A DNA stretch of 64,000 bases from Holosporales bacterium (GTDB taxonomy: Bacteria; Pseudomonadota; Alphaproteobacteria; Paracaedibacterales; CANFPP01), in contig CANFPP010000002.1 in the NCBI GenBank assembly GCA_947449005.1, forward strand, positions 30,781 through 94,780, given 5' to 3'. The position numbers and the translations under genes are program-made. The number at the start of each line of letters is the position of its first letter. Positions within the stretch are counted from its first letter, which is position 1. The notes under the pieces are model-generated. The model searched no databases and was not told where the DNA came from. It saw only the letters and a program-made list of their open reading frames with translations. Positions 3,984-62,540 of the stretch are shown piece by piece.

Positions 3984-4847
3984 CTATTCTGGTTCAACGA
4001 CAGTAACTCCAGCGGGGTGGTGTGTGTCTTCAGAAACAATAGCGTGACTTTCTGGTGTTAGCGTTGCAGGAACGTGTATCTCGGCTGCAAGAGGGGCAAC
4101 TTCTGGTGCTGTTGCTGTGGGTATCTCGGCTACGGGTTCTGCTGCTACTGCTGCTGGTTGTTGTGGTGTTTCTACAGGAGCGGCTGCGATGTGAGCTTCT
4201 GTCGGTTGTGATTCTGTTGCTGGTGCTGCTACTTCAGGAATTGGTGCTGTTTCAGCTGGCGTCGCTGCAGCAGGAGTTTCTGTTGAGGACGAGTGTGTTT
4301 CCGTTGTTGGGTTTATTATAGCAGGAGTTTCTGCTGGGACTACAGCTGTTTCGGCAGGCACTGCAGGCTCTGAAAGTTCAGAAAAATTATCGTCTAAAGA
4401 AATACTTTTATTGTATTGATGCCATTGATAAAAAGCAAAAACGAGAACAATGCTGATTAAAATTGATAACCAAAAAACACGTTTTGAAACAAAATCTGGC
4501 TCAGCTGGAATAGGCATCAAAACAGGTGCTGTTTTTGTTTGGTTTGTTTGAAATTGATGAGCCATATTAAGACGATGTAGTAACGCTTCTCCATCTAAAT
4601 CAACAAACTTTGCATACGCTTTAATAAATCCGGCAACATATATTGTTCCTGGAAGATCATTAAGGCGACCTTCTTCAATGGCCATTAAATAGGGTGGACG
4701 TATGTGAATATGATCTGAAACTTTTTTAATGGAATAGTCTTTTTCTTGCCTGGCAGCTGCAATTGTTTGTCCTATAACGATGGCAGACGCTGAATAATCA
4801 TTGCTGTCTGCTGATGTTTCACTATGATTTTGTGCTGTGCTATTCAT
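3984..4847 (-). CDS. RodZ-like HTH membrane protein with a P/A/E/T-rich low-complexity C-terminal tail
   Basis: N-terminal XRE-type HTH (IGQTIAAARQEKDYSIKKVSDHIHIRPPYLMAIEEG...GFIKAYAKFVDLD), one TM segment (VFWLSILISIVLVFAFY), then about 140 aa of PAET/PVET-type repeats. Confidence 0.55.
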   Translation of the reverse strand: MNSTAQNHSETSADSNDYSASAIVIGQTIAAARQEKDYSIKKVSDHIHIRPPYLMAIEEGRLNDLPGTIYVAGFIKAYAKFVDLDGEALLHRLNMAHQFQTNQTKTAPVLMPIPAEPDFVSKRVFWLSILISIVLVFAFYQWHQYNKSISLDDNFSELSEPAVPAETAVVPAETPAIINPTTETHSSSTETPAAATPAETAPIPEVAAPATESQPTEAHIAAAPVETPQQPAAVAAEPVAEIPTATAPEVAPLAAEIHVPATLTPESHAIVSEDTHHPAGVTVVEPE

Positions 4848-5087
4848 GATTCAATATTCCAGTTCCTTGTTGATCTTTTTAAGGGTATTTAAACCAATAC
4901 TGATTAGCAAGAGGTGATTTAATTTTATTTAAAATTTTCTCTAATTAATGTCAATGAGCTAATCTCTGGAAAATATCTTGACATTTTTTTGGAAATCTTT
5001 ACCAACTCTGAATTATATCACTCTCTAATATTTCCATTTAAGAGAACGGTAAATATTTATCAAGCCTTTTGTGAGGAAGAATTTATT

Positions 5088-47314: not shown

Positions 47315-49043
47315 GTGCGCTCACGTGAGAAGCCGGCATCAAATAATTACTCGTAGGCTCAAGTGCATCCGTATTATATTCCAATGAATTTTCATTGATT
47401 TCGACGCCTAAAAGAGGGGCTATACGAGCAATCATTTTTCCGGAAATCGGTGCAACGTTCCAACCACCTGTTGCGTATCCATAAGTCGTTGCAATTGGCT
47501 TGGGATCGTCTAACATCACTACCATGATGTATTGAGGGTTGTCTTGTGGAAAGGCTCCAACAAACGAGGTTACTCTGGCTTTTTTAGAATAAACACCCTT
47601 TTCGTTTTTATGTGATGTTCCTGTTTTCCCCATAACATCATACCCAGGAACATTGGCTGCTTTTCCTGTGCCTTTTAGAGCAGTTAAGCGCATTAAATGA
47701 CGCATTAAACGAGATGTTTTTGCAGAAACAATAGGGGTTGTATTCTGGTATCTTTTAGGATTTCCATGTAGAAGAGTTGCTTGCGGAATATAACCATTGT
47801 TAATAATTCCTCCAATTCCCATGATGACTTGTAAAGGCGATACAGCAATACCATACCCATAAGAAATTGTTACTGTCGTAATATCTCTCCAGGTGGAAGG
47901 AGTTAGAGGCGCGCTAATCTCTGGAACTTCGATTGTTGGTGCGCGCAACAGTCCAAAAAGCTTCAAGTATTGACGTTGGTTTGCGGTGCCAAATTCAAGA
48001 GCCATTTTTGTCATTGCAATGTTTGATGAGTAAAAGAACGCTTCCTCAAGAGACAGTACTCTGTTCTTTCCTCTGAAATCACTAATTTTATGACGGCCAA
48101 AACTTATTGGAACAGTGGCATCATAGCGACTGTTTATATTTGCTACGCCTGTTTCTAAAGCAATTGCTGTGTTGAAAATCTTAAAGGTTGATCCAGATTC
48201 ATAAACACCTAAAGTATTGCGGTTGAAAGTATCTTTAACCATGTTTTGGTTTGGTAAGTTAGGGTTAAAATCTGGCAGAGAAACCATTGCCACCATTTCT
48301 CCCGTTTTAATATCCATAACCATAGCGTTTCCGCCTTCGGCCTTAAACTCAGCTATGCCTTTAAGGAGTTCATCATGAATGATATGTTGGACTCGAACAT
48401 CAATAGAAAGCTTTAAAGGCTCTGCATTATTACGTAACCGCTTATCAAAGTATCGCTCCACGCCTGCAAGACCGCTATTGTCAAGGCCGCAATACCCAAG
48501 AACATGTGAAACGAGTGATCCATAAGGATACACACGATGTTGATCCTTTTGTAAGTAAACGCCAGGAATTCCTAATTGATTGACTGCTTGTTGCAATTTT
48601 GGCGGAATATGCCTTGTAAGCCAAATAAATCCCTTATCCGATGTTAGCTTGGTAAGGAGAACGTCAAAGCTAATTTCTGGAAAAAGCTCACTTAATTTTA
48701 TCGCGGCTTCACGTGGATTAATGATAACTTTTGGATTTGCATAAACAGAAGCTGTCATTAAATGCGTTGCAAGAATTTCACCATTGCGATCAACAATGTC
48801 GCTTCGTGATAAAACGAGATGCTGGCTAATGTCATCACTTTGTCTTGCATCCTTGCCCGTTCTAATAAGCATCACATCCACAAGGCGAGCAGCAATCAAA
48901 ATAAACGCCAAGCAAAAAATACCTCCAGCAACAAAAACACGTTGCTGAGTCATTTCCAGAATAGATCTCTCCTCTATCGCCTGATTCCACAGAGTCAGGT
49001 GCTTTGAGAGAGCTATTAAAGGGCGTTTTATGAGGTGCTTCAT
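47298..49043 (-). CDS. ftsI: Peptidoglycan D,D-transpeptidase FtsI (PBP3)
   Basis: N-terminal TM segment, STFK (YESGSTFKIFN), SSN (FYSSNIA) and KTGT (MGKTGTS). Confidence 0.95.
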   Translation of the reverse strand: MKHLIKRPLIALSKHLTLWNQAIEERSILEMTQQRVFVAGGIFCLAFILIAARLVDVMLIRTGKDARQSDDISQHLVLSRSDIVDRNGEILATHLMTASVYANPKVIINPREAAIKLSELFPEISFDVLLTKLTSDKGFIWLTRHIPPKLQQAVNQLGIPGVYLQKDQHRVYPYGSLVSHVLGYCGLDNSGLAGVERYFDKRLRNNAEPLKLSIDVRVQHIIHDELLKGIAEFKAEGGNAMVMDIKTGEMVAMVSLPDFNPNLPNQNMVKDTFNRNTLGVYESGSTFKIFNTAIALETGVANINSRYDATVPISFGRHKISDFRGKNRVLSLEEAFFYSSNIAMTKMALEFGTANQRQYLKLFGLLRAPTIEVPEISAPLTPSTWRDITTVTISYGYGIAVSPLQVIMGIGGIINNGYIPQATLLHGNPKRYQNTTPIVSAKTSRLMRHLMRLTALKGTGKAANVPGYDVMGKTGTSHKNEKGVYSKKARVTSFVGAFPQDNPQYIMVVMLDDPKPIATTYGYATGGWNVAPISGKMIARIAPLLGVEINENSLEYNTDALEPTSNYLMPASHVSAHEDVD

Positions 49044-49050
49044 TTTATCG

Positions 49051-49425
49051 TCATGCCCTCACATTCGGCTCTGAAGCAAGTTGAGACATGATGTTATCAA
49101 GCGAAGGTTTCTTGCTATCAAGTGAAGGCTGTTGAATCGTTGGGGTTGGCACTACTGCGGCAGTAACATCCTTTAGTGAAATCATTTGACTTCCCTGTAT
49201 AGGGCTTAGGTCTAAATATTTCTGCGTTAATACTTGTAAGATCTTTGGATCATTAAGATGAGCCCATTCCGCTTTTAAAACATGAATAGATTCTTCAGAC
49301 TCTATGATCGATTTACGAATTTGGTTCTGTTGCTGTTCTAAAAAAACAACTTCATATTTGACGCGAAAAAGTATAAGTCCCACGAGAATAGCTAATATAC
49401 CAGTAAAAAATGTTGAGCGGCGCAT
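49051..49425 (-). CDS. ftsL: Cell division protein FtsL-like
   Basis: 124 aa with one TM segment and a coiled region, located between rsmH and ftsI. Confidence 0.6.
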   Translation of the reverse strand: MRRSTFFTGILAILVGLILFRVKYEVVFLEQQQNQIRKSIIESEESIHVLKAEWAHLNDPKILQVLTQKYLDLSPIQGSQMISLKDVTAAVVPTPTIQQPSLDSKKPSLDNIMSQLASEPNVRA

Positions 49426-50375
49426 TACGCTTCTTCTCCCGCTCTAACTCTGACTGCGGCTCTAAGGCGCGCTGAACGCGAACGTGGATTGCTTCTTATT
49501 TCCGAACGTGTGGGAGTAATTGCTTTAGAAAAAAGAGTTTTAAAAGGAGACGGCGCATCAGTCTGATTTCCGGGGAGATCAGGGGTGTATCGGGATATAG
49601 ATGTCCCCTGCGACTGCCGCAAAAAATTTTTAACCAATCTATCCTCTAGTGCATGAAACGTAACTGCAACCAATCTTCCTTGTGAACCAAGTAAATCAAC
49701 ACAGCTTTTTAAAGTATTCTCTATCTCTAGTAACTCATTATTCACATAAATACGCAAGCCTTGAAACGTCAAGGTTGCGGGGTCTAAACCATCTTTTTTC
49801 TTAACAATTCCTCTAATGAGCTCTGCAAGTTGCAATGTCGTTGTAATTGGGGCATTTCTGCGACTTTCAACGACAGCTTTTGCAATAGCCCGAGATTTCT
49901 TCTCTTCGCCATAAGTTTTAATTATAGACTCAATTTGTTCTTGAGTGAAAGTATTAATTACATCAGCAGCGCTAATTCCTTCATTTGACATGCGCATGTC
50001 AAGAGGTCCGTCAAAACGGAAGGAAAACCCGCGCTCTGCCTGGTCTATTTGATATGAAGAGACGCCAAAATCAAAAACAATGCCATCAATTTTGTCTATA
50101 TTGATTGAATTGAGTAGTTGAGTAATATTTCCAAAACATCCTTGAACTATAGTAAAATTATTAGGGAAATTTTTAGATAAATTTGAACTACGTTCTATTG
50201 CATCAGGGTCACGATCAATTGCAATAACTTTACAATCTGCAGCTTTTAAAATAGCTTCACTATAACCACCGCCACCGAAAGTCGCATCTACGTATGTTTT
50301 TCCACTTGAAGGCTGCAGCGCTTCTATCATCTCTCTTAAGAGAACTGGTTTGTGCCCATTATCCATGAGATGCAT
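49425..50375 (-). CDS. rsmH: 16S rRNA (cytosine1402-N4)-methyltransferase RsmH/MraW
   Basis: HKPVLLREMIEAL, YVDATFGGGGYS, DRDPDA and FDFGVSSYQID. The start is placed at Met41 of the track ORF; the longer form would overlap mraZ by 137 nt. Confidence 0.93.
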   Translation of the reverse strand: MHLMDNGHKPVLLREMIEALQPSSGKTYVDATFGGGGYSEAILKAADCKVIAIDRDPDAIERSSNLSKNFPNNFTIVQGCFGNITQLLNSINIDKIDGIVFDFGVSSYQIDQAERGFSFRFDGPLDMRMSNEGISAADVINTFTQEQIESIIKTYGEEKKSRAIAKAVVESRRNAPITTTLQLAELIRGIVKKKDGLDPATLTFQGLRIYVNNELLEIENTLKSCVDLLGSQGRLVAVTFHALEDRLVKNFLRQSQGTSISRYTPDLPGNQTDAPSPFKTLFSKAITPTRSEIRSNPRSRSARLRAAVRVRAGEEA

Positions 50376-50817
50376 CCCTTTGCTGAGATAAACGTTCTCT
50401 CGTTGCGTTATGGTGGTTTTTGAAGGTTTTTGGATTCCATATTTGGAAACGACTTCCTCTGCCGACAAAAGCAATTTGATCTGTGATTTGCGCATACTCT
50501 GAAAATTCAGTCGGCAGGCTCATTCTTCCTTCACTGTCCAAAGTAATCAAATGAGAATCTGCAAAAATGACTTCAGCAAAGTCATCAAATTTATTTGCAA
50601 CCCAACCAGTAGAATCTTTGTTTAGCGTTTGAAGAAAACGAGAACTGCAACCTTCCAAACACGGATGATTAAGCGAGCGAAAAAGCACTAAGGATGATTG
50701 CTCCGCATCTGAATCGCCTTGAGTCTTGTGAAGAACTGTTCGAAAACTATGAGGTACGGAAACGCGTCCTTTTTTGTCTATTTTATTGGTTATTGTTGAT
50801 AAGAATAAATCAGACAT
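50359..50817 (-). CDS. mraZ: Transcriptional regulator MraZ
   Basis: NKIDKKGRVSVPHSFR and LDSEGRMSLPTEF are the two SpoVT/AbrB-like MraZ repeats. It is the first gene of the dcw cluster. Confidence 0.9.
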   Translation of the reverse strand: MSDLFLSTITNKIDKKGRVSVPHSFRTVLHKTQGDSDAEQSSLVLFRSLNHPCLEGCSSRFLQTLNKDSTGWVANKFDDFAEVIFADSHLITLDSEGRMSLPTEFSEYAQITDQIAFVGRGSRFQIWNPKTFKNHHNATRERLSQQRDASHG

Positions 50818-50873
50818 GAAATACTACGGTTCCAAAACTTAATTGTAGTGCAAAATTATTATACCTCTATATA

Positions 50874-50929
50874 ATGGGATAGCATGGGAATCGATGGGAG
50901 TCAATGGGAAATGTGTTGTTTTTGTGGGA
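50874..50929 (+). promoter_or_regulatory. Phased (A/G)TGGGA direct repeats. Candidate MraZ operator overlapping the mraZ promoter.
   Basis: ATGGGA at 50874, 50884, 50894 and 50904 (exact 10-bp phasing) and GTGGGA at 50924. A perfect minus-strand TATAAT lies at 50863..50858, between the boxes and the mraZ start. Confidence 0.55.
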
Positions 50930-50937
50930 TTTAAGCT

Positions 50938-52098
50938 ATGAGTGTGTCTGTTTTTAGGGAAGATTTTCAAGGTATATTGCAGGTTTTACCAGCTTTAGAG
51001 AGCGGTGGGGTTGAGTGCATGACGCTCGATCTTGTTCTAGCTTTAGAAAGAATGCATTTTCCCTATAAATCTTACGTTGCGTCCGCTGGCGGTAAGATGT
51101 TGGAAAAATTAGATAATTCTAATGTAACGCACTTAACTTTGCCGCTTAAGAGCAAAAATCCGAAACAAATGTTTTTGAATACTCAAGAATTGCAAAGAAT
51201 TATTCAAAATCACAATATTAAATTAATTCATGCTCATTCAAGGGCGCCTGCCTGGAGTGCTCTTTTGGCAGCCAAACGCGAGAAAATCCCTTTTATCACG
51301 ACATATCATGGAACTTATAACAGCACCAATTTTATCAAAAAATTTTACAATTCAGTTATGATTAGAAGTGATAAAGTTATTGCAATTTCAAAGTTTATTG
51401 AGAACCATATTCACCAGCACTATGCAATAGACTCTCAGAAGGTGGTGTTAATTCCTGAAGGAGTAGATGTTGATAGTTATGCGCCTGATAAAGTCTGCTT
51501 AAGTAAAACTCAAGAATTAAAGTCAAGTTGGCAGATAGCACCTAACGATTTTGTTTTTATGTTGCCAGGGCGTTTGACTGAGTGGAAGGGGCAAAAGACT
51601 TTTTTAAAAGCAATTGCCAAAATGACTCAAGAGAATATAATTGCCGTAATTCTAGGGTCAGATCAGGGACGTAGTCAGTATAGATCTGAGCTTGAGTCAC
51701 TCGTAGACACTCTTGGAATTCGCTCTAAAGTTAGATTTGTGAATGAATGTTCTGATATGCCAGCTGCTTATAGTGTTGCAGATGTTGTGGTTTCTGCCTC
51801 TACAGATCCAGAGGCTTTTGGTAGAGTAACGGCTGAAGCTTTGTCAATGGGGCGAATTGTTGTCGGCACAAATCACGGTGCCACACCTGAGCTGTGCAAA
51901 GATCATGGATTTTTAGTTAAACCTGGCGATGTTGAATATTTGTGCGCAACCCTCGATAAGGCTTATAACCTAGCACTTGAGGAAAAACGAGAAAGGGGAG
52001 AGAAGGGGCGTCTCCATATTGTTGAGAACTTTTCTCTGGACGGAATGATCCAACAAACCATCAACCTATACGAGAGCCTATGTTCAATCTCAACTTAG
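50938..52098 (+). CDS. Glycosyltransferase, GT4 (group 1) family
   Basis: GT-B protein with GRLTEWKGQKTFL and the EX7E region (DPEAFGRVTAEALSMGRIVVGTNHGATPE). Confidence 0.8.
   Translation: MSVSVFREDFQGILQVLPALESGGVECMTLDLVLALERMHFPYKSYVASAGGKMLEKLDNSNVTHLTLPLKSKNPKQMFLNTQELQRIIQNHNIKLIHAHSRAPAWSALLAAKREKIPFITTYHGTYNSTNFIKKFYNSVMIRSDKVIAISKFIENHIHQHYAIDSQKVVLIPEGVDVDSYAPDKVCLSKTQELKSSWQIAPNDFVFMLPGRLTEWKGQKTFLKAIAKMTQENIIAVILGSDQGRSQYRSELESLVDTLGIRSKVRFVNECSDMPAAYSVADVVVSASTDPEAFGRVTAEALSMGRIVVGTNHGATPELCKDHGFLVKPGDVEYLCATLDKAYNLALEEKRERGEKGRLHIVENFSLDGMIQQTINLYESLCSIST
52055..52082 (+). repeat. Left copy of the 28-bp junction duplication flanking the HipA cassette
   Basis: aaaccatcaacctatacgagagcctatg encodes the GT4 C-terminus ...TINLYESLC. 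Confidence 0.85.
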
Positions 52099-52252
52099 TT
52101 ACAAAAGTGCAGTCAAATATATCTGACTCAGCCTTTTTTGTGATTTTTCAAAATAAAATATAATTTACTTTATGGTTTAAGTTTCTAAGAAAGTAAGCTA
52201 TATTTTACCGTACATAAGATGTTTCAGTTAAATTGTAAAAAGGATTTTACCA

Positions 52253-53461
52253 ATGGCAAATTTTTTGTGGGGGAAAGTCTACTACAAAGATTTTTATGCC
52301 GGGACACTGCGAGAAGAGCCAGGCGATCGTACTGCTTTTGAATATGATAAATTTTATCAAAATGCTGGTCATCCTGCGATTGCTTATACAATGCCTGTCA
52401 GATCTGCTCCGTATATAAGTCAATCAGGACTCCATCCTTTTTTTGATAATCTTGTTGCAGAAGGATGGTTGGAGCATGCGCAAACACGTTTGCTGGGAAA
52501 GCGTCAAATTTCACGGTTTGAATTACTATTAGCTTTTGGATATGACTGTGCAGGTGCTGTATCAATTGCCGATCCTGAACCGGCTCGTTTGACAGAAAAA
52601 TTATTAGATATGAGTGATCAAAAAGAAATGGCAGTACTGACGAGTCGCGCCTCTCTATCTGGTGTTCAACCAAAATTAGCGATTGTTGCTCGTAATGGTA
52701 AATATTATCCTGCCAAAATTGGCGAGTTGAGCACTCATATTGCTAAGTTTCCTTCGGCTGGGCATTCTGATTTAATTATTAATGAATACCTAACAAGTTT
52801 GGCTTTTAAGGCGCTGCTGCCTAAAAGTGAGATTGTTGATTTATCAGTAGATTCTATAGAAGATTTTCCCGAAGCTGCTCTTATTATCAAACGTTTTGAT
52901 CGTACAATCGAAGGTCGTGTGCATTTTGAAGAATTCAATCAATTGCTGGGAAGAAAGTCCAACGATAAATATAATGGCGGATATAAGGAAATGAGTGATT
53001 TCATACGTACGACGAAAGAGTGCTTGCCAACAGAAAATTATCTTCTTTATGAACAACTTTTCGCAGGTTTGTTGTTAGGCAACACAGACATGCATTTTAA
53101 AAACTTTGCTATGTTTCATAAACCCACAGGATTACGAATGACTCCTGTTTATGACCAAGTTGCAGCTTCACTCTATAATTATAAAACTATTGCGTTGGCA
53201 TTAGGCGGGGCACGAAATTTGGAAATTGGCAATTTAAAACCAAAGCATTTATTTGTTTTGGCTAATGAATTTAACTTGTCACTTGATATGGTTGAATTAC
53301 TTTTCAAGCAATTGAGTCGTAATAAGGACGCCGCCAAAGATGCAATTGCTTCATCCAGAGTTGGAGATATAGCGTTTAAAAATAAACTAATTAAATTGAT
53401 GGAATCAAGATGGAACGGAACATTCGCCTTAATTGGCCAGACTTTGTTGAAGAAGCAGTAA
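52253..53461 (+). CDS. hipA: HipA-family Ser/Thr kinase (type II toxin-like)
   Basis: The N-terminal HipA_N pattern is present (FFDNLVAEGW, AFGYDCAGAV, SLSGVQPKLAI). So is the C-terminal catalytic loop (LLLGNTDMHFKNFAM...PVYDQV). An aagga RBS precedes the ATG. Confidence 0.8.
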   Translation: MANFLWGKVYYKDFYAGTLREEPGDRTAFEYDKFYQNAGHPAIAYTMPVRSAPYISQSGLHPFFDNLVAEGWLEHAQTRLLGKRQISRFELLLAFGYDCAGAVSIADPEPARLTEKLLDMSDQKEMAVLTSRASLSGVQPKLAIVARNGKYYPAKIGELSTHIAKFPSAGHSDLIINEYLTSLAFKALLPKSEIVDLSVDSIEDFPEAALIIKRFDRTIEGRVHFEEFNQLLGRKSNDKYNGGYKEMSDFIRTTKECLPTENYLLYEQLFAGLLLGNTDMHFKNFAMFHKPTGLRMTPVYDQVAASLYNYKTIALALGGARNLEIGNLKPKHLFVLANEFNLSLDMVELLFKQLSRNKDAAKDAIASSRVGDIAFKNKLIKLMESRWNGTFALIGQTLLKKQ

Positions 53462-53610
53462 AACGTCGAAAATTGCAGGGGCTCACTCAGGAGCAACTTG
53501 CCATACTATCAGGGGTTAGCAAGCCAACACTGAATAGCTTTGAGCAGGGAAAAACGACTGTTTCTTTGGAAAATGCTCTTAAAATTCTGCGGACACTTGG
53601 ATTAGAATAG
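53410..53610 (+). CDS. XRE-family helix-turn-helix protein (putative HipB-like partner encoded downstream)
   Basis: 66 aa. KRRKLQGLTQEQLAILSGVSKPTLNSFEQGKTTVSLENALKILRTLGL is a canonical HTH_3. The ORF starts 52 nt inside the 3' end of the kinase gene. Confidence 0.65.
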   Translation: MERNIRLNWPDFVEEAVKRRKLQGLTQEQLAILSGVSKPTLNSFEQGKTTVSLENALKILRTLGLE

Positions 53611-53621
53611 GTTATTTGCAA

Positions 53622-54326
53622 ATGGATGAAGATATGATTGCATATAAAAAAGGTATAACAGCCTATGTCGATAAATTTGATAAACTTGAGAAGAAAATAT
53701 ATTATATACGGCAAGAAATAAGCTCTATGTATCGTATTGATACGACAAAGGAAGGTATTAAAGATGTCAGATATTTAGTCTTTGATCACATGTTTGCAAG
53801 TATTAAACATAGCCGATTGCTCTTAAAATTTACTGACTATGATTGTATGCTTAGAGAATGTGATAGTATTCCTAATATGGGAGAAATAATAGTAAAAAGA
53901 TTGATATATTATCCAATTCCTTGTTTTTATCATGCAATTGAGAATTGCTTCTTCAAACTATTGAAAGCATTAGATAAAGAATACGCAAATGATAAATACT
54001 ATCAGTTAGTAGAAAATATTTTTACGAAACTATCTATGCCGAAAGATGGTGACGCATATAAATCATATGAAGTTCTTGGTTGTCTTCGCAATTCAATGCA
54101 CAATAATTGGGTACATGAGAAACAAAATAAAGGACACACAATAAAAAATGTTGAATTCCCCTTTTCTAAGGGCGGACATATAGCGTTTAAATCAGAAGAT
54201 CATATATTTATACTAATGGATACAATAATTGAGAGTCTTCTTACAATAATGCGTCACTCAGAGATACAAAAACTCAAGAGTGAAGATTGTCATGAAAGAT
54301 TTGCTCAATCGTTAGATCAAAAATAA
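53622..54326 (+). CDS. Hypothetical protein with no recognisable family. Third gene of the cassette.
   Basis: Long ORF (236 aa from TTG 53616, 234 aa from ATG 53622) beginning 6-12 nt after the HTH stop. It is Lys/Ile/Tyr-rich and contains LGCLRNSMHNNWVH. Confidence 0.55.
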   Translation: MDEDMIAYKKGITAYVDKFDKLEKKIYYIRQEISSMYRIDTTKEGIKDVRYLVFDHMFASIKHSRLLLKFTDYDCMLRECDSIPNMGEIIVKRLIYYPIPCFYHAIENCFFKLLKALDKEYANDKYYQLVENIFTKLSMPKDGDAYKSYEVLGCLRNSMHNNWVHEKQNKGHTIKNVEFPFSKGGHIAFKSEDHIFILMDTIIESLLTIMRHSEIQKLKSEDCHERFAQSLDQK

Positions 54327-54332
54327 CCAAAA

Positions 54333-54360
54333 AAACCATTAACCTATACGAGAACTTATG
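54333..54360 (+). repeat. Right copy of the 28-bp junction duplication
   Basis: aaaccattaacctatacgagaacttatg still reads TINLYENLC. Its last three bases are the GT9 start codon. Confidence 0.85.
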
Positions 54361-55269
54361 CAACGTATCCTCATCATAAAATTAGGTGCCTTAGGGGACA
54401 TCGTGCAGGCTGTGAGCGCGTTTTCGGCAATCCGAGAACACCATCCAAAGGCTAATATCACGATATTAACCAGGCCCTTATATCAAGATCTCATAGCGAA
54501 GATGGGGTTCTTTGATGAGGTCTGGATAGATGAACGTCCGAAGCTTACTCAAATTAATAAGTGGTTGAAGCAAAGATCTCGATTGCAGTCTGGCAATTTT
54601 GATAGGGTTTATGATCTGCAAGGCGTAACACGAACCAATCTGTATTTCTGGAGCTTAACGAAGCGTCCTGAATGGGTTGGAATGGCACGTGGATGCTCTC
54701 ATCCTTATCCGCAAAAAGATCCGCATCGTCAACATCCTCAAGAACGATTTAAAACGCAGCTTGTTCTGGTTGGTATTCAATCTCTGTCCTCAATTGATCT
54801 CTCATTTTTAGCATCTGAGATTGATCAATTTGCCGTGCATTCACCTTATGCTTTGCTTATCCCAGGTGCTTCAAATGCGCATGGGGGGAAAAAACGATGG
54901 CCTCTTCTAAAATATGCTGAAATTGCTTGCTACCTAAAATCAAAAAATATCTTGCCGGTAATTATAGGTGGTGCCAATGAAGATAACTCTTTAATAGGCC
55001 AGCTTTGTGCGGAGGCTCTCGATCTAACTGGAAAAACCAGTTTCATCGATATAATTTCTTTGGCAAAAAATGCATTATTTTCAATTGGAAATGACACAGG
55101 ACCAATGCTACTTTGCCATGCAGCTGGTTGTAAAACACTCACTTTATTCTCAAGTGTAAACCCGCCATTAATTGGGGGAGCGAGAGGCGTTGGTGCAGAG
55201 CAGTTATTTTGTGATGACCTTAATCAATTAAGTGTTCAAACTGTTATTAATGCTATTGATTTCTTCTAA
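54358..55269 (+). CDS. Glycosyltransferase family 9 (LPS heptosyltransferase-like)
   Basis: MQRILIIKLGALGDIVQA..., a typical GT9 N-terminus, and GNDTGPMLLCHAAGCKTLTLF. Confidence 0.8.
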   Translation: MQRILIIKLGALGDIVQAVSAFSAIREHHPKANITILTRPLYQDLIAKMGFFDEVWIDERPKLTQINKWLKQRSRLQSGNFDRVYDLQGVTRTNLYFWSLTKRPEWVGMARGCSHPYPQKDPHRQHPQERFKTQLVLVGIQSLSSIDLSFLASEIDQFAVHSPYALLIPGASNAHGGKKRWPLLKYAEIACYLKSKNILPVIIGGANEDNSLIGQLCAEALDLTGKTSFIDIISLAKNALFSIGNDTGPMLLCHAAGCKTLTLFSSVNPPLIGGARGVGAEQLFCDDLNQLSVQTVINAIDFF

Positions 55270-56091
55270 AGTCAGGCCTGTTGCATTTATAATAATGGTG
55301 TTATCAATTTTCTGAGCGAGAAGATTTCTAGCAATCTCTATTTTTTCTTCCATCTTTCCTTTTTCTATTCCTTTTTGATTTGTAACTTCAAGAGTGTTCT
55401 CAACATCTACAATCGCTAGTGCTGCATCTTCATAAGCAAGCATTTCTGATTCACTCCAAGTATAGCGCTCTAATGTATGGTAAGCTTCTTCAATAGGGGT
55501 GCCTTGAAAAATTCTCGGAATTTCTCTGTCTTTATCCGCATGCCTTAGGAAGTAAATCCATTTTTCTTCAATAGTTTCGAGTTCATGTTCTTGTTTTATG
55601 AATTTAGGGAGCTCAATAAACGTAAAAGAAAAATCTTTTAAATCATGTTCATAACTCGATGTATCCAAAATCAAATGGTCTGATTTATATGACTCTTTGT
55701 CTGGAAAGAGGACATGGTCAGCAATCGCTAAGAAAATAACCTGGTTCAGCTTTGGGTATTCTTCTCCACGTTCTAGCTGTCCTGTGTAGGTTTTTGCGGC
55801 ATAATATTGGGCCCGTTTGTCAAATCCTGCGACATGAGAAATCTGCATCTCTACAATATATCGAATATTTCTGGCATCTTTACATAAGATGTCGACAATG
55901 CTTTGTTTTGCACCAAAAGTTTTGGGAGCCTGGATAGGATTAAGAAAATCAACCTGCTCGATAATTTTATCGCCAGTGAGATTCAAAACTCCATTAAGAA
56001 AATCTATTAATAAATCCTTGTGATCCTCGTTACCAAAGATTTTTTTAAAGGCAACGTCATTTTTGGGGTTTAAGTATTTACTTTGCGTCAT
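55228..56091 (-). CDS. Rpn-family recombination-promoting nuclease / PD-(D/E)XK putative transposase (YhgA-like)
   Basis: The family signature KYLNPKNDVAFKKIFGNEDHKDLLIDFLNGVL, the nuclease core IVDILCKD...YIVEMQ, and a helical C-terminal tail. Its 3' end overlaps the convergent GT9 3' end by 42 nt. Confidence 0.75.
   Translation of the reverse strand: MTQSKYLNPKNDVAFKKIFGNEDHKDLLIDFLNGVLNLTGDKIIEQVDFLNPIQAPKTFGAKQSIVDILCKDARNIRYIVEMQISHVAGFDKRAQYYAAKTYTGQLERGEEYPKLNQVIFLAIADHVLFPDKESYKSDHLILDTSSYEHDLKDFSFTFIELPKFIKQEHELETIEEKWIYFLRHADKDREIPRIFQGTPIEEAYHTLERYTWSESEMLAYEDAALAIVDVENTLEVTNQKGIEKGKMEEKIEIARNLLAQKIDNTIIINATGLTLEEINSINNSLNT

Positions 56092-61348: not shown

Positions 61349-62540
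<1,192 letters not shown>

Follow-up and report, generated by a model that had tools for sequence, protein, structure and literature searches.

How is a HipA-like kinase controlled when the only gene for a helix-turn-helix (HTH) protein beside it lies downstream and begins before the kinase gene has ended? This question is raised by a locus in a 64,000-nt stretch of DNA from a Holosporales bacterium (assembly GCA_947449005.1, contig CANFPP010000002.1, positions 30,781 to 94,780; the whole stretch is called the window here), in which a hipA-like Ser/Thr kinase gene (52253..53461, + strand) is followed by a hipB-like, XRE-type HTH gene (53410..53610, + strand). Toxin-mediated antibiotic persistence was first exemplified by HipA kinases, whose mechanism is, to our knowledge, understood for the hipBA and hipBST forms only. 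An original prediction, made from the letters of the window, had described an intact kinase whose sole HTH partner is encoded downstream and starts inside the kinase gene. From the analyses reported here we consider it likely that the two genes, in the reversed order hipA then hipB, make up a type II toxin-antitoxin-like module of the HipA family that is autonomous and horizontally mobile. The locus is a member of a very widespread and strongly conserved toxin-first HipA family, which bears on how such an operon avoids self-poisoning and on whether an HTH protein of 66 aa is sufficient to inhibit a HipA kinase.

The kinase and HTH proteins

The kinase gene encodes a putative toxin of 402 aa. 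Pfam searches matched Couple_hipA over residues 8-105 (E 2.6e-22; 79.6 bits against a cut-off of 22.5) and HipA_C over residues 134-333 (E 3.1e-35; 122.2 bits against a cut-off of 30.5), with the N-subdomain-1 (Couple_hipA) being part of the kinase itself, and Pfam found no N-terminal HTH domain in the protein. The functional roles given to individual residues follow from alignment with E. coli K-12 HipA. On that basis, S134 in the P-loop motif RASLSGVQPK (R132 to K141) corresponds to S150 of E. coli HipA, the ATP-binding lysine K165 in the motif THIAKFP corresponds to K181, D279 and N284 of the catalytic loop GNTDMHFKN (residues 276-284, beginning with G276) correspond to D309 and N314, and the Mg-binding aspartate D301 in the motif TPVYD corresponds to D332. 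The equivalents of S134, K165, D279, N284 and D301 are invariant in an alignment of 44 kinase family members, and so are the two P-loop serines of S134-L-S136, which resemble the S57-I-S59 motif of HipT. An AlphaFold2 model of the kinase (mean predicted local distance difference test score, pLDDT, 74; predicted template modelling score 0.78) had its best PDB matches in full-length HipA of S. oneidensis and E. coli (4pu4, 3dnv and 2wiu; template modelling score, TM, 0.61-0.66), and reached a TM of 0.82-0.85, normalised to the target, against the HipT(Lp) core. By sequence, the closest solved structure was S. oneidensis HipA (E 7e-18). The NCBIfam model for YjjJ/HipH (NF007297) scored 36.2 bits against a cut-off of 401 and covered the core region only. 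Both domains are present and the catalytic residues are invariant among the 44 relatives; the kinase is, as had been proposed, an intact HipA homologue.

The downstream gene encodes a putative antitoxin/autorepressor of 66 aa, which matched HTH_3 in Pfam (E 1.1e-13) and for which the best NCBIfam model was couple_hipB/Y4mF (TIGR03070). Profile searches with hidden Markov models had been recommended alongside the original prediction, and Couple_hipA, HipA_C and HTH_3 were all matched. We detected 467 homologues of the HTH protein, nearly all of them exactly 66 aa long. In its AlphaFold2 model (pLDDT 82) the XRE helices are preceded by a short strand at the N-terminus, and the best structural matches of the model were HipB proteins (8ezt, 9u9g [HipB of P. 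fluorescens 2P24], 4pu7 and 3dnv). The N-terminal strand, which includes W9, is invariant and sits outside the canonical HTH core, making it a candidate protein-contact element.

The kinase-first layout across the family

At E <= 1e-10, the kinase has homologues in at least 1,670 protein clusters. The top 120 relatives are full-length, nearly all of them ~402 aa long and 59-77% identical to the window kinase, with an overall range of 59-100%. A genome scan yielded 35 loci from Alpha-, Gamma- and Deltaproteobacteria, Acidobacteriota, Rhodothermales and other groups, and in 33 of these a homologue of the 66-aa HTH protein is encoded directly downstream, on the same strand, starting inside the kinase gene. 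A protein search of the 35 loci with the 66-aa HTH protein found none upstream of the kinase. No HipS-like or other conserved third gene was found beside the module at these loci, and no conserved neighbour other than the HTH gene was found among them or in three further contexts. These data indicate that the kinase-first layout is a family trait, not a local oddity, and that the claim of a sole, downstream HTH partner holds well beyond the window. Lost catalytic residues or an overlooked upstream HTH gene had been named beforehand as grounds for doubt; the residues are invariant, and neither the ORF listing of the window nor the protein search of its relatives showed an HTH gene upstream. The family of 402-aa kinases and 66-aa HTH proteins is frequent in intracellular and uncultured Proteobacteria.

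At several loci (L026, L029, L031, L033 and L034) an internal deletion, a truncated 5' end or a frameshift has degraded the kinase gene. The neighbouring HTH gene is intact in L026, L029, L031 and L033 and has been lost in L034; decay of the kinase with retention of the HTH gene is the pattern usually seen in toxin-antitoxin modules. Longer partners also occur. The HTH proteins of L019, L022, L025 and L032 are 155-162 aa long and, by Pfam, fuse HTH_3 to DUF1488 (PF07369), an example being the gene at L019:3768-4238. The downstream HTH proteins of L021 and L023 are of the same size as these, and those of L027 and L028 are 166-186 aa long with a C-terminal part to which no domain was assigned. 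In the group formed by L019, L021, L022, L023, L025 and L032, the overlap with the kinase gene is 76 nt at five of the six loci and 91 nt in L022, and the upstream palindrome is of a different type, TAAA..TTTATA.

A conserved dual-coding overlap

In the window, the open reading frame (ORF) listing and the sequence agree that the kinase and HTH genes, both on the + strand, share the 52 nt from 53410 to 53461, the HTH frame being -1 relative to the kinase frame. The GT4 glycosyltransferase gene upstream ends at 52098, leaving 154 bp before the kinase gene, and the listing holds no ORF in these 154 bp that is big enough for an HTH protein. The coordinates, the length of 66 aa, the 52-nt overlap and the 154-bp gap given in the original prediction all matched, and gene callers on public contigs that carry an identical protein also call both overlapping genes. 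The dual-coding segment (53410..53461, + strand) specifies the C-terminal helix of the kinase (RWNGTFALIGQTLLKKQ, followed by the stop codon) in one frame and the N-terminus of the HTH protein (MERNIRLNWPDFVEEAV) in the other.

Of the 33 related loci that have the HTH gene, 23 share the window's overlap length of exactly 52 nt. In six of the 33, where the HTH protein is longer, the overlap is 76 nt, and the other lengths (37, 40, 91 and 100 nt) come in part from assemblies with evident frameshifts. Mean pairwise nucleotide identity across the loci is 0.78 in the overlap, compared with 0.49-0.54 in the preceding kinase-only region and 0.55-0.65 in the HTH-only region, and the entropy at third codon positions falls to 0.6-0.7 bits in the overlap from ~1.6 bits outside it. 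Both products of the segment are conserved, the kinase tail as ME(K)RWNGTFALIGxxLSKKQ and the HTH N-terminus as MERNIRLNWxxxVxEA. The rise in identity together with the drop in third-position entropy is the signature of two translated frames, and on this evidence both reading frames of the overlap are under selection. It had been foreseen that the 66-aa ORF might prove to be untranslated; its frame shows conservation of the coding type, the overlap included, which argues that it is translated.

Like the window, 32 of the 33 related loci have an ATG aligned to residue 1 of the HTH protein. An internal Shine-Dalgarno-like sequence, TGGAA (53400..53404, + strand), lies within the kinase codons Met-Glu, 6-8 nt before this ATG. 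In most relatives the motif reads GGAG, in the kinase codons Met-Glu-Lys, and ATGGAGAAACG-ATG is conserved in nearly all loci. The internal GGAG/GGAA is put forward as a putative translational-coupling signal.

Operator-like palindromes and the predicted promoter

A 16-bp palindrome, GTAAA-N6-TTTAC, stood out in two to four copies when the sequences upstream of the kinase genes were aligned across all loci. The window has three operator-like copies, spaced 40 and 42 bp apart: O1 (ATAAAATATAATTTAC, 52153..52168), about 100 bp before the kinase start codon; O2 (GTAAGCTATATTTTAC, 52193..52208), about 60 bp before it and containing a putative -10 element, TATATT (52199-52204); and O3 (GTAAAAAGGATTTTAC, 52235..52250), about 18 bp before it and covering the Shine-Dalgarno sequence AAGGA of the kinase gene (52240-52244). 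O3 matches GTAAA-N6-TTTAC exactly and occupies the same position in many relatives, and O1-O3 are three of the five matches in the 64-kb window when one mismatch is allowed. When the 200-nt windows before the family kinases were taken together (6.4 kb summed), they contained 47 sites, compared with nine in the other 200.8 kb of the loci, a 164-fold enrichment. The positions of the palindromes are likewise conserved across loci, near -100, -59 and -18.

Where the HTH recognition helix reads STPTIS and not SKPTLN, GTAAA sites are missing and the palindromes are of the TAAA...TTTATA type. This covariation of the palindrome with the recognition helix argues that the HTH protein binds the palindromes, and in the window it would be expected to bind O1-O3. 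A promoter with its -10 element TATATT inside O2 is predicted from the same alignment. Its -35 element in the window is a weak TTTAAG (52176-52181), and the relatives have TTGACA or TTGAAA 17 nt upstream of TATATT. No intrinsic terminator was found after the HTH gene. Separately, an 18-bp near-perfect palindrome, AGTCAAATATATCTGACT (52111-52128), lies upstream of O1 at the left end of the inserted DNA described below, outside the region homologous to other modules.

An inserted cassette that moves as a two-gene unit

Compared with two sister contigs (L039 and L040), the window contains an extra 2.25 kb, from 52083 to 54332. In the sister strains the GT4 protein belongs to the same 90%-identity cluster, the flanking genes are 88-92% identical at the nucleotide level, and the site is empty, with the GT4 and GT9 genes overlapping by 22 nt and nothing between them. 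The insertion is flanked by a 28-bp imperfect direct repeat, with a left copy at 52055..52082 (AAACCATCAACCTATACGAGAGCCTATG) and a right copy at 54333..54360 (AAACCATTAACCTATACGAGAACTTATG) that ends in the start codon of the GT9 heptosyltransferase gene; the two copies correspond to a single copy in the empty site. The insertion carries the operators, hipA, the HTH gene and a 234-aa ORF (53622..54326, + strand), which starts 11 nt after the HTH stop codon and lies outside the conserved module. No integrase or transposase was found inside the 2.25 kb.

Nucleotide homology to other modules extends exactly from O1 to the stop codon of the HTH gene. Since the homology is bounded in this way and conserved neighbours are absent, the mobile unit is the 1.46-kb cassette of operators, kinase gene and HTH gene. 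With its counterpart in Ca. Paracaedibacter symbiosus the kinase shares 75% identity, but the housekeeping protein RsmH shares only 56% with its homologue there, a contrast that fits lateral transfer. The best named relatives of the host RsmH, in Ca. Odyssella and Ca. Paracaedibacter, are 56% identical to it, which marks the host as an uncultured alphaproteobacterium. Taken together, these comparisons indicate that the cassette has been horizontally acquired and moves between genomes as a two-gene unit.

A phage origin was considered and rejected, as the PHROGs matches were weak, the kinase hitting families of unknown function and the HTH protein generic transcription-regulator families, and the module had no match in the phage genome collection or in viral contigs. 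A role in anti-phage defence was also rejected, as PADLOC gave weak partial matches only. In the plasmid collection no plasmid-borne copies of the family were found, and the nearest plasmid relatives are ~33% identical.

Relationship to known Hip modules

The original prediction had noted that several non-canonical organisations of HipA homologs have been published, and the reversed order proved to be an explicit category among them. According to a survey of 1,239 Hip kinases (Gerdes, Baerentsen & Brodersen, mBio 2021; PMC8262856), reversed gene order is recurrent among Hip modules and arose several times. Eight hipAB modules are placed there in sub-clades of two clades, VI and VII in the main text and V and VII in the footnote to Table S2, and HipE forms a separate deep clade, IX, of 12 hipEB modules that have a downstream HTH protein named HipB and an N-subdomain-1. 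These hipEB and hipAB modules were listed in the survey without experimental test (PMC8262856). Likened by its layout, the window module resembles hipEB and reversed hipAB in being bicistronic, with the kinase gene first, the HTH gene downstream and the N-subdomain-1 kept, and it falls within the published category of toxin-first HipA modules with a downstream HTH partner. A 52-nt overlap, an HTH protein of 66 aa and GTAAA-N6-TTTAC operators are not mentioned in the available text of the survey (PMC8262856).

A reversed pair was characterised in 2022 in Shewanella putrefaciens CN-32, where the HipAB module of the genomic island GI21 (Sputcn32_2916/2915) has a kinase that is toxic in E. coli and a downstream HTH protein that neutralises the kinase and represses its own operon (PMC8978831). 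Compared by description, this module and that of the window share the order hipA-hipB and residence on a mobile element. They differ in the length of the kinase (448 aa in S. putrefaciens, 402 aa in the window), in the HTH protein, which is a 152-aa HipB with a C-terminal HTH in S. putrefaciens and a 66-aa protein consisting of little but the HTH in the window, and in the junction of the genes, which are 4 bp apart in S. putrefaciens and overlap by 52 nt in the window.

Canonical hipBA (E. coli K-12, S. oneidensis MR-1) shares with the window module the architecture, fold and catalytic residues of the kinase and the HipB-like XRE fold of its partner. Its operators are several TATCC-N8-GGATA palindromes over the promoter, a parallel to the palindromes of the window. 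It differs in having the opposite gene order, another operator sequence and a kinase only 22-24% identical to that of the window, and E. coli HipB has a C-terminal extension that the window HTH protein lacks. The HTH gene immediately upstream of the kinase that defines hipBA is absent from the window locus. In hipBST (E. coli O127, Legionella pneumophila), the HipT kinase resembles the core of the window kinase, but HipS is encoded by a separate gene and hipB lies upstream, whereas in the window the N-subdomain is fused to the kinase and the HTH gene is downstream. HipH/YjjJ is monocistronic with an N-terminal HTH, in contrast to the bicistronic window module, whose kinase has no such domain.

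In the plasmid collection, the nearest relatives found by tblastn are on S. meliloti pSymA (L046), Ensifer adhaerens p1 (L047) and Azospirillum brasilense p3 (L048), at 31-33% identity; more distant plasmid relatives are canonical hipBA. These megaplasmid modules also have the kinase gene first (~390 aa), with an HTH_3 regulator gene directly downstream that overlaps it by 34 nt in Ensifer and 25 nt in Azospirillum and is separated from it by a 23-nt gap in S. meliloti. Their regulators are 327-337 aa long, with an N-terminal HTH_3 and an uncharacterised C-terminal region, compared with 66 aa in the window. In a neighbour-joining tree whose references were drawn from outside clades II-IX, the window family forms a single clade (80% bootstrap), does not fall within E. 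coli HipA/clade I or HipH, and groups weakly with the rhizobial reversed group (54% bootstrap).

Proposed mechanism and alternative explanations

How could such a module work? In the mechanism that we propose, a single promoter between O1 and O2, with its -10 box inside O2, would drive one transcript, from which the 402-aa kinase would be translated first. Ribosomes finishing the kinase, or loading at the internal GGAG/GGAA, would then start the 66-aa HTH protein 52 nt before the kinase stop codon; the position of this start inside the kinase gene would tie antitoxin synthesis to toxin synthesis. The HTH protein, probably as a dimer, would bind the three GTAAA-N6-TTTAC palindromes and, as these cover the -10 box and the ribosome-binding site of the kinase, bound protein would repress the operon. 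By analogy with HipB, it would also sequester the kinase in an inactive complex. Free kinase may phosphorylate an essential translation factor and so arrest growth, the precedent for HipA and HipT being an aminoacyl-tRNA synthetase as target, and it may inactivate itself by autophosphorylation at the P-loop serines S134/S136. The reversed pair of S. putrefaciens CN-32, which is toxic, neutralised and autorepressed (PMC8978831), offers a precedent for this mechanism by analogy.

Several points weigh against reading the locus as a toxin-antitoxin module. For this family, everything proposed on toxicity, neutralisation, DNA binding and the kinase target is inferred. The HTH protein of HipBST is, according to the Hip survey, a repressor and not an antitoxin (PMC8262856), so that an adjacent HTH gene is no proof of an antitoxin role. 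The 66-aa HTH protein scores below the NCBIfam couple_hipB cut-off (55.3 against 71.65 bits) and stops just past the last helix of the fold, with no C-terminal extension; given that E. coli HipB (88 aa) has such an extension, the mode of kinase binding may differ or be absent. Confidence in the kinase AlphaFold2 model is low across residues 59-135. As for transcription, a scan with the sigma-70 consensus called no + strand promoter upstream of the kinase, and a promoter-like site inside the kinase gene (53151-53179), which matches at 10 of 12 positions and is probably a chance occurrence, could drive the HTH gene independently.

Some of these points would suit a kinase with a dedicated repressor, in which the HTH protein only autoregulates transcription, like HipB in HipBST, and autophosphorylation of the S-x-S P-loop keeps the kinase in check, unless the kinase is a non-lethal regulatory enzyme of the HipH/YjjJ sort. 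The minimal HTH protein has no extension that could reach the kinase, the operator evidence speaks for DNA binding alone, and the two invariant serines S134-L-S136, with their likeness to those of HipT, would provide the alternative control. HipB of HipBST, which is no antitoxin, supplies the model for such an arrangement (PMC8262856). However, the window kinase keeps its own N-subdomain-1 and no HipS-like gene is at hand as an alternative antitoxin. Strict mobility as two genes, the enforced overlap and the decay of the kinase with the HTH gene kept are traits of toxin-antitoxin modules, the invariant strand with W9 is a candidate for contact with a protein, and the sole tested reversed HipAB pair acts as a toxin-antitoxin pair (PMC8978831). 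We therefore regard a repressor without antitoxin function as rather unlikely, though it is the main rival to the toxin-antitoxin reading.

Two further explanations concern which proteins the locus makes, and we give each of them very little credence. Programmed -1 frameshifting in the overlap could yield a kinase-HTH fusion, a C-terminal counterpart of HipH, with the 66-aa ORF not translated on its own. A shift of -1 does lead from the kinase frame to the HTH frame, and an overlap of such length and conservation is unusual, but the HTH ATG is kept in all but one of the 33 related loci with a GGAG-like motif 6-8 nt before it, the conserved HTH N-terminus begins exactly at this ATG, the length of the overlap differs between sub-clades (37, 52 and 76 nt) while the HTH start is kept, and on reading the overlap we saw no X XXY YYZ slippery heptamer. 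Equally improbable is the idea that the 234-aa ORF (53622-54326) encodes the true antitoxin, or an effector partner, of a system with three components. The original prediction had suggested testing each downstream gene; for this ORF the matter is settled by its lack of conservation with the module. Its position on the same strand, 11 nt after the HTH stop codon and within the same 2.25-kb insertion, would suit such a role, yet it was rejected as a component of the module: no homologue is found beside the 35 related modules or in the three further contexts, nucleotide homology between modules ends at the HTH stop codon, its GC content is lower (28-33%, compared with 37-39%), and its family is a rare one (74 representatives among 1.84 billion proteins).

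The toxin-antitoxin reading thus remains the one that we prefer, and the reversed hipAB/hipEB layout having already been published (PMC8262856, PMC8978831), the layout in the window is real and conserved but less novel than first rated. What goes beyond the available literature is the conserved 52-nt overlap with its internal Shine-Dalgarno-like motif, the minimal 66-aa HipB, and the GTAAA-N6-TTTAC operators that covary with the HTH. The gain is a well-characterised member together with these family-level details, which establish no new principle and are not very surprising to a specialist. The locus does supply a frame for experiments, with operators, a predicted promoter, a coupling signal, catalytic residues and a natural empty-site control. 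It is conceivable, although we hold it to be less probable than its negation, that the family is a large HipA clade without a separate description, whose biology differs from that of hipBA in three ways. If so, the tail-less HipB may neutralise the kinase through its N-terminal strand (MERNIRLNW, with W9), which is encoded inside the kinase gene; the 52-nt overlap may be an obligatory translational-coupling device that fixes the ratio of toxin to antitoxin in a toxin-first operon; and the target of the kinase may be other than GltX or TrpS.

Other features of the insertion and its surroundings

The 234-aa ORF had no match in Pfam, NCBIfam, PADLOC, PHROG or PDB. Within its family the motif R156-N-S-[L/M]-H160-N-N is conserved, which recalls the Rx4-6H motif of HEPN proteins but is one residue short. 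Rfam and tRNA scans of the 64-kb window returned only a tRNA-Met at 61349, which is unrelated to the module.

The module adjoins the division and cell-wall (dcw) cluster in two unrelated genomes, next to ftsZ in L055 (JGI 3300082554) and next to mraZ/rsmH in the window (48000-52100), which is probably a coincidence. In one of the sister contigs, L040, rsmH contains ~262 extra bp (~4589-4850, corresponding to ~49788 in the window) and is called as fragments of 115 aa and 284 aa; the extra DNA may be a small insertion, or an artefact of the assembly. Immediately past the GT9 gene, the window has a gene for a PD-(D/E)XK_2 / Rpn-type "transposase-like nuclease" (55228-56091, - strand), and the segment 55260-56148 with this gene is missing from both sister contigs, constituting a second strain-specific insertion.

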